From a virus (Duplodnaviria > Heunggongvirae > Uroviricota > Caudoviricetes): a DNA stretch of 15,728 nucleotides. Made by a program: the position numbers. The DNA is taken from the IMG/VR virus record IMGVR_UViG_2654587570_000006. One strand, 5' to 3'. Shown here in pieces: positions 6,001-9,000 of the stretch. The stretch's first letter is position 1. Every line of letters starts with the position of its first letter.

Positions 6001-9000
6001 TATGAATGCAGGGTTTGATGAAAAGATTTTGTTCCCCTCATCAGTTGAAAGCACTGCGGGTTAAGGAGTAACACATGACCACTATTACCAAAGAACGTAT
6101 TGAATTGTTCATTAAATTTTCAGGAGGCGGTACTGTGAGTGAAATTAGCTATCAGGCTTCAATTACCGCTGGCATTCGCATCAAAGGAGAGGAGCATGGA
6201 AATAAAACCAGAGGATGAGTTAAGCAATATCGTTTTATTTCCGGTAAAAGAGGATGACCCTCGTAATCAGGTTAATTTTCTTTATGAGCCATCGGAAAGA
6301 CCATATTGTCATCACGCCTCTGTCCGGGTTGACGAAAAAGAGCGTCAGGTCCGCTGTAAAATCTGCGGTGCAGTTGTGGAACCATTTGACTGGATGCTCT
6401 CTGTGGCGAAAAGAGAAACCAGACTGGCAGATGATGTAAGGCTCTTGCGTCAGGAGGAGCGGGAAAGGCGAAAAAATATAGAAAAGCTAATTCAGATTGA
6501 GCGTAACGCGAAAGCGCGGATACGCAGGGCGACAAAATCCAGAACTGAATAATTAAATTTAGCTCTGTTAAAAATTTAATCCTTAACCGGAGGGATTTCT
6601 GCACCCTCAGAACATCAGGAGGCCGCCCGAAAGGGCGGTAGTTAAATGCGAAAGTTTAAAATAATTATTGAAACGGGAATAGCCGGTGGAGATTTCGAGG
6701 ATGAATTCGAAGTGGATGATGATGCGACGCCTGATGAAATACATGACGAAGCAAAAGATATTTTCTTTAACTACTGCAATTACTCATATCACGAAATAAA
6801 AGACGAAGAGGAAGAACAAAATGGCTGATTTTGGTTCAACTAAATACAACGTCGGTTTTGAAGAATGGCATGAACTGTTAATGGACTATGCAGAGTTACG
6901 TGGTGGCAGTGCTGCTGATGCTGAAGCATGGCGTGATGATTATGAAGCAGGAAAAACTCCGGTCGAAGCATATTGTGATGAGTGGGGCGATGAATGAGCG
7001 AGGTTAATTATCAGGAAGGGCATGAAACGGCGGGGCAAGCAAAAACAGTGGCATGGCGATATCGCTACGTGAAAAAAAGGCGTTACGGACTTTCAGGGGA
7101 AGTAGTGGTCTGGTGACTGGAAATATGTACCGAAAAAAGAGGATTGTAACGACAGGCCGAACTATGAAATTCAGGCCTTATTCACTGCCCCGCCAGTCCC
7201 GGTTACATCAGAAGAACTGGTTAAAGCTGTGCACTTTTATGAACAACTAAAATGCGAAAATCCACCAGCATCCGGAAACCTGATTACAGATTCCCAGATA
7301 AGGCAATGAGCTACCTGGCGCAGAACGGGCTGATAAGTATGGGGAATGTTTTACGATGAATATTTAGACTAAAGAGTTTGTAACGCTATGTAAGTGATTT
7401 TTTCTGGTTTAGATATTTATATGTCCGGCTAAATTGAGGTGTGTTTAAATGTTATTGCACATTGATTGTAGGGGGAATAATGAAAAACGCATTGCAGTTT
7501 TTGTTTGTTGCGTTCTGGTTGTTCGCATCATGTATGCCCATCATCTTCACAGCAAGGTATATGGAAAAAGTTGATGTTTTGATATTAATGTTTGGACATA
7601 TAAATGCCCTTTTTTTAGGGGTGTTCATGGCGGTCATGTGCATTGAATACTGGCGGTAAATACAGCGAACGCCATTGGTTTAGTTGGATATTTACTGTGC
7701 CGGACAAAAACGGTTTGCGGGGAAATCTTAGTTAAGTAGAATGACTGCGGGTGCTTGAGGCTATCTGTCTCAGGCATGAACACCAAAAGGCAGATAGAGA
7801 AAAGCCCCAGTTAACATTACGCGTCCTGCAAGACGCTTAACATTAATCTGAGGCCATATCTATGCGACACATAGAGATTAGCCTCTTACGGACCGAAAGG
7901 TCAAGGAGAAGCAGGCTATGAAGCAGCAAAAGGCGATGTTAATCGCCCTGATCGTCATCTGTTTAACCGTCATAGTGACGGCACTGGTAACGAGGAAAGA
8001 CCTCTGCGAGGTACGAATCCGAACCGGCCAGACGGAGGTCGCTGTCTTCACAGCTTACGAACCTGAGGAGTAAGAGACCAGGCGAGGGGGAAATCCCTCG
8101 CCACCTCTGATGAGTCAGGCATCCTCAACGCACCCGCACTTAACCCGCTTCGGCGGGTTTTGTTTTTTCCTGGCATTCTGGTTTACAATTCGCACGTCAG
8201 CCTGAACACCTGACACCTGCTGCGCCAGTAGAGAAAACAGATGGCGCACAAAACCAAATTTCACAATTCTGATACCGACCTTGCCATCCGGCATGGGCGG
8301 CGTTCACACGCATTTAAAACCGACTGGTACCAACACCCACCATGTACTGAAGAACAGGCCGAATGGCTAATTCATAACTACCGCAGACGCGGATACGAGA
8401 TTAAGAAAGCCCTCAGCCTCGATTATCGTCACTGGATAATCTATGTCAGGCTCCCTTATTCCGAACGCCCACCGCGTCCGTCCCGCACATTCCAGCAACG
8501 CATCTGGAGGTAACGTGCGGGTATTACTTCGACCTGTTCCGGTACCGGAACTTGGGCTGGTGGTGCTAAAACCGGGCCGTGAATCCATGCAGGTATTTCA
8601 TAACCCTCGAGTTCTGGTGGAGCCGGAACCGAAAAGCATGCGCGGTCTGCCGTCCGGAGTCGTTCCTGCTGTTCGCCAGCCGCTGGCGGAGGATAAATCA
8701 TTACTGCCATTTTTCAGCGATGAGCGGGTGATTCGTGCTGCTGGTGGTGCTGGTGCATTGTCTGACTGGCTGTTACGCCACATTAAATCCTGCCAGTGGC
8801 CTCATGGTGACTACCATCACAGTGAAACCGTCATACATCGTTACGGTACCGGCGCGATGGTGTTGTGCTGGCACTGCGACAACCAGCTGCGTAACCAGAC
8901 TTCCGAATCACTCGGGCAGCTTGCTCACCAAAACCTGTCAGCATGGATGATTGATGTCATCCGCCACGCAATGAATGGCACGCAGGAGCGGGAATTATCG

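Follow-up and report, generated by a model that had tools for sequence, protein, structure and literature searches.

Results

Two Acidic Genes in the Early Operon of a Lambdoid Prophage

The window, the whole stretch of 15,728 nucleotides that was analysed, carries on its + strand two adjacent small genes, A (6646–6828) and B (6821–6997), encoding strongly acidic proteins of 60 and 58 amino acids. The product of A contains 20 acidic residues (9 D and 11 E, 33% of the protein), 5 K/R and 8 F/W/Y, with a net charge of -15 and a pI of 4.05; that of B contains 16 acidic residues (7 D and 9 E, 28%), 4 K/R and 9 F/W/Y, with a net charge of -12 and also a pI of 4.05. When 11.5% D+E was assumed, the acidic count of A had a chance probability of 7e-6 and that of B one of 6e-4, and both proteins were the most acidic among the 43 ORFs of the window (+ strand, ATG-started, at least 40 aa). 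A sequence-only reading made earlier of this DNA had given the coordinates, translations, acidic counts and the net charge of A, and all of them were correct.

The two genes lie in a lambdoid E. coli prophage of the Rac/Qin type, within the nin-like portion of its rightward early operon. On a 98.3% identical E. coli chromosome the gene order was repressor (- strand), Cro, YdaT, replication genes, small ORFs, A and B, followed by hokD, DUF968, RusA and a DUF1133 gene located where the late-gene antiterminator Q of lambdoid phages lies. This annotation supports the early-right operon to which the two genes had previously been assigned, and their proposed location in an accessory stretch was also borne out, as A-B falls within the mosaic accessory part of the operon. 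In phage ArgO145, A-B was found in the accessory region of the early-left operon. Of 5426 complete E. coli genomes, 2700 contained DNA matching the 1-kb stretch around A-B, and in 1370 the match covered at least 80% of the stretch.

The start codon of B and the stop codon of A overlap in the 8-nt junction ATGGCTGA (6821–6828, + strand), and a Shine-Dalgarno-like GAGGA sequence lies inside A, upstream of the B start. Both the adjacency of the two genes and this junction were kept in 159 of 160 IMG/VR loci, which are near-identical E. coli prophage DNA. In turn, B overlaps the next ORF, named C here, by 4 nt (ATGA), and further overlapping junctions were observed in the window at 5797–5803 (TGATATG) and 1837–1840 (ATGA). 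The ATGGCTGA, ATGA and TGATATG signals of the previously described block of coupled small ORFs do exist, but the third ORF of this block is a frameshifted pseudogene, and the signal listed as GAATGA is the same B/C junction as ATGA. Similarly, the translational coupling stands for B, which overlaps A, but not for A, separated from the upstream gene by a 93-nt spacer and provided with its own leader.

ORF C (6994–7359, + strand) was annotated by PGAP as “frameshifted; internal stop” on identical DNA, its open frame in the window covering positions 6994–7116 of the annotated extent. It begins with MSE(V/I)(N/D)YQ, a start resembling that of the Ead/Ea22-like genes found behind B in other phages; a gene of this kind lies after B in ArgO145 and in locus L173, and an intact counterpart of C (85 aa) was found in phage vB_EcoS-640R1. 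This Ea22-like remnant is followed by hok/sok, and no HTH gene was found downstream of B. Additionally, a promoter scan of the spacers on either side of A detected no promoter-like site on the + strand, and a terminator scan detected no terminator-like site near A or B.

A Portable Leader Upstream of Gene A

The gene upstream of A ends at 6552, and the 93-nt spacer is formed by an AT-rich intergenic leader element (6533–6600, + strand) that was revealed by a repeat search. This element is repeated at 5266–5335 (repeat families D1 and D3, 81–90% identity). The leader of A itself (6617–6645, + strand), analysed by RNA folding, comprises AGGAGG at 6617–6622, a 7-bp hairpin with a GAAA loop (stem 6622–6628 / 6633–6639) and AGTTAA before the ATG. 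The in-frame stop codon TAA at 6643–6645 fixes the start of A at 6646.

A portable Shine-Dalgarno-plus-hairpin leader was observed before gene A. An exact second copy of its 23-nt motif is located at 5554–5576, before another gene, when 0 were expected by chance. The motif stays with gene A where the upstream gene differs, and in IMG/VR it was found before several gene families. This 23-nt leader may be a mobile cassette, serving as both translation-initiation site and recombination junction, by which accessory genes are shuffled between the lambdoid prophages of E. coli.

Gene A Belongs to the DUF7167 Family

Residues 2–53 of the A product spanned all 60 positions (1–60) of the Pfam model DUF7167 (PF23768), with 55.1 bits (E 7.9e-15) over a gathering cut-off of 24.4, and the match to PHROG 1997 (phrog_1997) had an E-value of 9e-31. 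A is consequently a full-length member of DUF7167/PHROG 1997, with no difference found, and a product identical to it is named “DUF7167 family protein” in RefSeq (WP_001224662.1). Homologues were found in Klebsiella Guernseyvirinae and Enterococcus Herelleviridae. A homologue borne by a Klebsiella prophage passed the gathering cut-off (54.2 bits), and those of the Klebsiella Guernseyvirinae and the Enterococcus phage were slightly under it (22.9 and 19.0 bits, respectively). The species-representative genomes contributed only 3 loci to this family, and one of them, in a Collinsella MAG, probably stems from E. coli.

The pN/pS of A was 0.04–0.09 among the E. coli prophage variants. The median net charge of the family was -13, and E9, E22, D25, D38 and E50 were invariant acidic residues in its alignment (a conserved acidic position, for both families, being one that is acidic in at least 80% of the aligned members). 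A literature search returned no functional study of DUF7167/PF23768.

The AlphaFold2 model of A (pLDDT 78) showed a beta-beta-alpha-beta order followed by an acidic C-terminal tail, the C-terminal part of the protein being HEIKDEEEEQNG. The modelled fold weakly resembles small phage-encoded inhibitors. The sheet-plus-helix proteins T4 Dmd, AcrIE2, AcrIC9 and AcrIIC3 scored against A at the level of unrelated RAM/ACT-like domains; they have no sequence similarity to A and their targets are mutually unrelated.

T7 Gp2 (PDB 2WNM, 2LMC) is, like A, an acidic protein of about 60 aa, and its strand-strand-helix-strand order is also that predicted for A. When both were compared by hhalign, the segments RKF...IET and FEV of A were set on KKF...VES and FEV of Gp2, a placement that leaves the invariant E9 of A opposite Gp2 E21, which belongs to the negatively charged strip of that protein (PMC3778932). 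Nevertheless, the profile comparison was non-significant (probability 0.2–0.4%, P 0.16–0.37), the probability being 0.16% against Gp2 and 0.37%, with P 0.16, against a 23-sequence Gp2 alignment, and the homology pursued through that alignment was rejected. Neither the PDB sequence profile search with A nor the best 50 BFVD matches of A included Gp2. Moreover, R56 and R58 of Gp2, invariant and situated after the last strand, are required for binding to the beta-prime jaw (PMC3778932), whereas the A family has no conserved arginine after its last strand and carries the acidic tail instead. A differs from Gp2 both in this tail and in being carried by temperate phages.

Gene B Encodes a Predicted Three-Helix Domain of PHROG 519

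The product of B matched PHROG 519 (phrog_519) with 79.7 bits (E 5.5e-22) and is a member of this family, although its residues 1–58 cover just positions 76–137 of the 143-position profile. No Pfam family was found for it, and in RefSeq it is annotated as a hypothetical protein (WP_000753057.1). The pN/pS of B was 0.03–0.18 among the E. coli prophage variants. Its AlphaFold2 model (pLDDT 88.4) was a three-helix bundle with a conserved aromatic core, and the conserved residues are largely core aromatics and helix caps.

An exhaustive search of 1.84 billion representatives, run for the B family only, produced 160 clusters at E ≤ 1e-3, mostly stand-alone proteins of 50–65 aa. The median net charge of this family was -9.5, and it was -5 or lower in 80% of 109 stand-alone representatives; the conserved acidic positions are D33, D40, E42 and D53. 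Homologues were found in Ackermannviridae, P2-like prophages and phages of Morganella and Enterobacter, those of the Ackermannviridae being 55–60% identical to B. Among 10 longer proteins scanned for domain fusions, a recognisable partner (GemA) was present in 1, and the B-GemA fusion is too rare for a function to be assigned from it. The label DUF5419, which a homologue carries in Morganella phage Mecenats66, was discarded, as it could not be reproduced for B and four homologues even at E ≤ 10. The literature search yielded no functional study of PHROG 519, its sole relevant item being a PaCRISPR prediction (see section “Discussion”); a second match was false and concerned phrog_5197.

A and B Are Real and Independent Genes

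A and B are real genes, as indicated by pN/pS values of about 0.04–0.1 together with homologues in distant phages. An hhalign comparison of the two families found no similarity between them, which ruled out that A and B are homologous or duplicated. Outside the enterobacterial lambdoid prophages, every divergent context examined held only one of the two: A was found without B in loci L003–L006, L171 and L213–L217, and B without A in loci L007–L010, L172, L174, L175 and L218–L220. Since each gene occurs without the other in other phages, they do not form a two-part system, and an obligate A+B two-component system was rejected for this lack of co-occurrence across divergent genomes. A and B are two unrelated, independent accessory genes, both of families already catalogued. 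Strong acidity is a conserved trait of both families.

Furthermore, A and B were compared with proteins of known function. The sequence and fold searches gave no match for either protein to any anti-restriction protein, the NCBIfam and PDB sequence searches returned nothing for them, and the PHROGs matched were families of “unknown function” only. PADLOC gave no match for A, B and five neighbouring small ORFs (E ≤ 0.01). The BFVD fold search retrieved uncharacterised small phage proteins only, none at E ≤ 0.001. The acidic composition had earlier been taken as typical of DNA mimics; the fold comparison with known DNA mimics gave no match for A or B. A general literature search for DNA mimics in prophages of the lambdoid group retrieved no relevant item.

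Discussion

Tentatively, and as a possible rather than a probable account, A and B are best explained as separate accessory genes whose products act as electrostatic nucleic-acid decoys. Both would be transcribed with the delayed-early rightward genes, between the replication genes and hokD/DUF968/rusA/Q. A would be translated from its own Shine-Dalgarno-plus-hairpin leader, and B by re-initiation at ATGGCTGA. Each product would be a complete single-domain protein: according to the models, A would have a three-stranded sheet packed against one helix, followed by the acidic tail, and B a three-helix bundle bound by conserved Phe/Trp/Tyr. The linkage of the two genes at this locus would be inherited mosaic structure. 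Each protein would work as a non-enzymatic, stoichiometric binder whose conserved negative surface fills the nucleic-acid-binding site of a protein of the host or of a rival element; the target could plausibly be a defence nuclease or one that processes DNA ends, neither class being singled out.

We infer this decoy mechanism, and any anti-defence role of A and B. The decoy reading draws support from the acidity conserved in both families, the small and confidently predicted folds, the weak resemblance of A to small phage inhibitors and the early accessory setting. Neither protein matched any enzyme family, and their neighbours elsewhere include phage Dam and other methyltransferases, NADAR, Mom and recombination genes. 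Composition by itself is insufficient for showing DNA mimicry, and many small acidic phage proteins serve other roles. In Ackermannviridae, the B homologues lie directly downstream of the major capsid gene, which may mean late expression, unusual for a takeover or anti-defence gene.

A more specific proposal, made in outline by the earlier sequence-only reading and rather unlikely in our view, is that one or both of A and B counter host defence by DNA mimicry as Ocr and ArdA do, occupying the DNA-binding groove of type I/II restriction-modification, BREX or CRISPR effectors and thereby blocking them. The known DNA mimics T7 Ocr, ArdA, T4 Arn, PBS2 Ugi, lambda Gam and T7 gp5.9 are small, non-enzymatic, early proteins with 20–35% Asp/Glu, borne by phages or plasmids. 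A and B share with them the small non-enzymatic character, the location on a phage element among early genes and the high Asp/Glu density (a third of the residues in A, 28% in B), conserved across both families, but they are shorter than most of these proteins, and a monomer of 58–60 aa could mimic merely a short duplex stretch. The genomic context offers some support: relatives sometimes adjoin orphan Dam/Dcm-type methyltransferases, NADAR or Mom, and in Salmonella P2-like prophages the B homologues lie beside a variable locus, with an nSTAND/AAA_16 gene in one, that was read as a defence hotspot. However, neither protein resembles Ocr, ArdA, Arn, Ugi, Gam or other solved DNA mimics in sequence or fold, and no HTH-type anti-CRISPR-associated (aca) gene lies downstream in the window, where the next ORF is a pseudogene. 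PHROG 519 includes Kuttervirus proteins that PaCRISPR singled out as candidate anti-CRISPRs, but this is a machine-learning prediction in which one member scored below the threshold of the tool (PMC9409062).

It is unlikely that A and B modulate host physiology or the lysis-lysogeny decision in the manner of the exo-xis proteins of lambda and Stx phages (Ea22, Ea8.5, Orf63). What points in this direction is the repeated position of the A-B cassette beside Ead/Ea22-like genes, in ArgO145 and L173 and, weakly, in Klebsiella phage ST512-KPC3phi13.3, together with the Ead/Ea22-like beginning of pseudogene C and the early-left accessory region that houses the cassette in ArgO145. The wide spread of the A-B stretch in E. 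coli would also be consistent with a benefit to the lysogen or during induction. Nevertheless, neither protein resembled a solved exo-xis protein in sequence, and both families are also present in strictly virulent phages (Ackermannviridae, Guernseyvirinae and Herelleviridae), which take no lysogeny decision.

The inhibition of host DNA-end nucleases (RecBCD or similar) by A and/or B, a role like that of lambda Gam or T7 gp5.9 that would protect linear replication or recombination intermediates, seems quite unlikely. T7 gp5.9 is itself an acidic protein of roughly 50 aa. Homologues of B adjoin recombination modules in several unrelated elements, directly after RecT (L219), two genes past YqaJ-SSB (L218) and two genes ahead of RdgC (L007), and those of A come after ERF-SSB-Dam in P22-like prophages and, in Guernseyvirinae, overlap a gene for a DUF2800/PD-(D/E)XK nuclease. 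However, A-B is not near recombination genes in the window or in its relatives; in ArgO145 it shares one operon with a gam-like gene, which would make the function redundant, and no Gam-family match was obtained for A or B. Moreover, the putative exonuclease beside A in Enterococcus is a DUF3850/ASCH protein and no homologue of the Klebsiella DUF2800/PD-(D/E)XK nuclease. These neighbours being unrelated, there is no single conserved partnership, and the possibility that A has a conserved exonuclease partner was ruled out.

Finally, it is highly improbable that A is a distant Gp2-like inhibitor, one that blocks a host enzyme, for instance RNA polymerase, by placing a negative strip within its DNA channel, the way T7 Gp2 does at the beta-prime jaw, given the non-significant profile comparisons and the missing arginines, and a shut-off of that type would harm a temperate phage that depends on the host RNA polymerase throughout.

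Beyond the favoured reading of A and B as separate electrostatic decoys, it is conceivable, although rather unlikely, that at least one of the two families, DUF7167 and the three-helix domain of PHROG 519, represents a new class of small acidic inhibitors encoded by phages. A would then act much as Gp2 does but on another target, a host or defence enzyme whose nucleic-acid channel it would plug with its acidic tail and with the invariant E9, E22 and E50, which may lie together on one face of the sheet. For its part, B would act as a portable domain, for targeting or as a decoy, standing alone in Ackermannviridae, P2-like and lambdoid prophages and occasionally fused to GemA-like and other proteins.

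What the analysis provides at present is a clean annotation of A and B as conserved acidic accessory genes that are real and independent of each other. Members of both families occur in virulent phages under consideration for therapy, with Salmonella, Klebsiella and Enterococcus as hosts. If A or B inhibits a defence system or a core DNA/RNA enzyme, the known inhibitors would gain a family whose members are both very small and very common, and this would help to explain differences in host range.

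Composition and Coding Status of Genes A and B

Genes A (6646-6828) and B (6821-6997), both on the plus strand, encode proteins of 60 aa (20 Asp/Glu, net charge -15, eight aromatic residues) and 58 aa (16 Asp/Glu, net charge -12, nine aromatic residues), respectively. Their products ranked as the two most acidic among the 43 plus-strand ORFs of at least 40 aa in the whole window, and the chance of such Asp/Glu counts under average composition was 7e-6 for A and 6e-4 for B, which confirmed the strong acidity described in the sequence-only reading.

The A stop and the B start share ATGGCTGA, the B stop and the start of ORF C (6994-7359) share ATGA, and the other stop/start junctions quoted in that reading were all found in the sequence. 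Two points depart from the coupled block of small ORFs that it proposed: ORF C is a frameshifted pseudogene in the window, and A, separated by a spacer of 93 nt from the upstream gene, is not coupled to it. The first codons of ORF C (MSEVNYQ) match the start of the Ead/Ea22-like genes following B in phage ArgO145 and in a further locus (L173), and the ORF C counterpart of phage vB_EcoS-640R1 is intact (85 aa).

About 160 IMG/VR prophage loci yielded 26–27 distinct nucleotide versions; between close variants pN/pS was 0.04-0.09 for A and 0.03-0.18 for B, replacements being far fewer than synonymous changes. Furthermore, homologues of equal length were present in distant phages for both proteins. 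A and B are real genes.

Location in a Lambdoid Prophage

The element is a Rac/Qin-type lambdoid prophage. Nearly all of the window (292-15728) shares 98.3% identity with a prophage of E. coli O111:H2 strain 12A; for the 1 kb around A-B, identity was 100% with several E. coli chromosomes and 99.6% with phage vB_EcoS-640R1. Of 5426 complete E. coli genomes, 2700 had a match to DNA surrounding the pair, and in 1370 the match covered 80% or more of the 1-kb query in which the pair lies.

The map opens on the minus strand with ydfC, a ydfB-like gene, a DUF1391 gene and a LexA-family repressor (53-1575), followed by Cro (1625-1840), YdaT (1837-2262), two replication genes (2285-4000), DUF1627 and DUF977 (4022-5230), and five small ORFs (5336-6552). 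Beyond A, B and ORF C lie DUF968 and RusA (8515-9936), a DUF1133 gene at the Q position (9945-10487), a DNA methyltransferase (11067-12116) followed by tRNA-Ile and tRNA-Arg genes (12166-12412), the IraM anti-adaptor gene on the minus strand (13312-13647), and a SASA-family esterase (from 13908). This gene order places A-B in a nin-like stretch of the rightward early operon, and the early-right position proposed from sequence was thus borne out.

A hok/sok type I toxin-antitoxin locus (7749-8073; Rfam sok, 106.7 bits; hokD, 7918-8073) was found about 750 nt downstream of the pair, and a match to the STnc100 sRNA (123.6 bits) adjoins the IraM gene within 13097-13647. The gene upstream of A (6196-6552; 118 aa, PHROG 1621) showed a weak TFIIB-type zinc-ribbon match (E 2e-4, under the Pfam cut-off), after which comes a basic stretch, RLLRQEERERRKNIEKLIQIERNAKARIRR.

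Repeated Leaders Before Gene A

Ahead of the ATG of gene A come AGGAGG, a hairpin of 7 bp closed by a GAAA loop (6622-6639), and AGTTAA. The Shine-Dalgarno sequence lies 23 nt from the start codon in linear distance and about 6–8 nt with the predicted hairpin formed, an arrangement with precedents in T4 genes 38 and 25. The exact 23-nt motif comprising both elements, GGAGGCCGCCCGAAAGGGCGGTA, occurs twice (5554-5576 and 6618-6640; 0 second copies expected by chance), 4–5 nt ahead of the ATG of DUF4014 and of DUF7167 (gene A), respectively, which are unrelated genes. IMG/VR held at least 127 exact copies, ahead of at least four different gene families, and at one position of the stem G was replaced by A, sometimes together with the compensating C-to-T and sometimes without it. 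In eight loci, the end of a gene of the 5336-5548 type runs straight into the hairpin and gene A; these loci look like the product expected of recombination between the two copies of the motif.

Additionally, a second AT-rich intergenic leader, ending in GGAGG, is repeated at 5266-5335 and 6533-6600 (81-90% identity). This leader and the hairpin motif bracket the small-ORF block 5336-6552, which suggests that they mark module boundaries. Short boundary sequences have long been noted at the mosaic junctions of lambdoid phages; the repeated leaders resemble them, and here the boundary would also be a translation-initiation signal.

Families, Distribution and Independence of the Two Genes

A belongs over its full length to Pfam DUF7167 and PHROG 1997. 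Homologues were found in Klebsiella prophages, virulent Klebsiella Guernseyvirinae, Enterococcus Herelleviridae, a Yersinia integrative element and several metagenomic prophages; the family is narrow, since only three loci turned up in 185,579 species-representative genomes. A copy of gene A with 98% identity on a 3030-nt Collinsella sp. MAG scaffold (L341) is most likely mis-binned E. coli prophage DNA.

B matches PHROG 519; no Pfam family was found for it, and the label DUF5419 carried by one phage homologue was not reproduced. An exhaustive profile search of 1.84 billion representatives returned 160 clusters, almost all of stand-alone proteins of 50–65 aa, with homologues in Ackermannviridae of Salmonella, Klebsiella and Escherichia, in Morganella and Enterobacter phages, in Serratia lambdoid prophages, and immediately after replication gene A in Salmonella P2-like prophages. 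The B-type three-helix domain occasionally lies inside longer metagenomic proteins: in P0229 it accompanies an N-terminal Mu GemA domain, the scanned P0238, P0239, P0250, P0264, P0269, P0282, P0291, P0292 and P0299 had no recognisable Pfam partner, and P0183, outside that scan, also contains it.

The two families are unrelated. A and B were adjacent with the identical overlap in 159 of 160 IMG/VR loci, all of near-identical DNA, and phage ArgO145 carries the same cassette in its early-left operon, flanked by Ead/Ea22-like genes. Every divergent context examined contained either A or B, never both; the two genes are therefore independent members of a mosaic cassette, and a two-component system was rejected.

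The homologues lie in accessory stretches of DNA-metabolism or early regions. A phage Dam methyltransferase stands immediately or a few genes upstream of the A homologue in three prophage contexts (L213-L215), and a DNA polymerase III theta homologue follows it in L213 and L214. In a metagenomic phage contig (L217, 3391-4192) the A homologue overlaps a NADAR gene and has a Mom gene close by; in Guernseyvirinae it overlaps a DUF2800/PD-(D/E)XK nuclease gene. B homologues were found after two DNA methyltransferases (L172), after RecT (L219), near YqaJ-SSB (L218), two genes ahead of RdgC (L007), and downstream of the major capsid gene in Ackermannviridae. In two Salmonella P2-like prophages (L174, L175; 4001-4189) the B homologue overlaps replication gene A at that gene's end and borders a variable locus, which in L175 holds an nSTAND/AAA_16 gene. 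No single partner gene recurred among the contexts examined.

Conserved Acidity and Possible Function

Both proteins are already catalogued (RefSeq WP_001224662.1 and WP_000753057.1, with the Pfam and PHROG entries named). A literature search found no paper addressing the function of either, the sole mention being a study in which machine learning predicted PHROG 519 members of Kuttervirus phages as candidate anti-CRISPRs (PMC9409062). Being catalogued and widespread in E. coli, the genes are thus ordinary as objects.

Median net charges were -13 (A alignment) and -9.5 (B alignment), and 80% of 109 stand-alone B-family representatives had a net charge of -5 or lower. Residues acidic in 80% or more of the aligned sequences were E9, D19, E22, D24-D26, E31, E35, D38, E50 and the tail in A, and E15, D33, E35, D39, D40, E42, D53 and E54 in B. 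B was predicted with high confidence as a three-helix bundle (pLDDT 88.4), its conserved residues forming mainly an aromatic core (F13, W16, L20, W37, Y41, W55) and helix caps; for A, the prediction was of moderate confidence (pLDDT 78) and gave a strand-strand-helix-strand order with an acidic tail behind it. BFVD matches were limited to uncharacterised small phage proteins, and for neither protein did a known DNA mimic appear. An anti-defence target specifically, as first suggested, appears unlikely.

Each of three other roles is less probable still. T7 Gp2, an acidic protein of 64 aa that inhibits E. coli RNA polymerase, has a negatively charged strip and requires R56 and R58 for binding the beta-prime jaw (PMC3778932). 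With the Gp2 sequence checked against PDB and an alignment of 23 Gp2 sequences built from IMG/VR, hhalign set RKF..IET and FEV of A on KKF..VES and FEV of Gp2 non-significantly (P 0.16-0.37), and the A family, unlike Gp2, has no conserved arginine after the last strand. A was therefore rejected as a Gp2 family member, and the resemblance is a lead on fold type only. Inhibition of RecBCD would be redundant in ArgO145, where a gam-like gene is carried together with A-B, which argues against it; an exo-xis-like role ranks similarly below anti-defence.

A and B are each small, non-enzymatic-looking, persistently acidic single-domain proteins, real, independent and conserved, in accessory early regions. 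Tentatively, and at somewhat less than even odds, we infer a general mechanism in which each would bind another protein through its negative surface and would act as an electrostatic decoy for a nucleic-acid-binding site.
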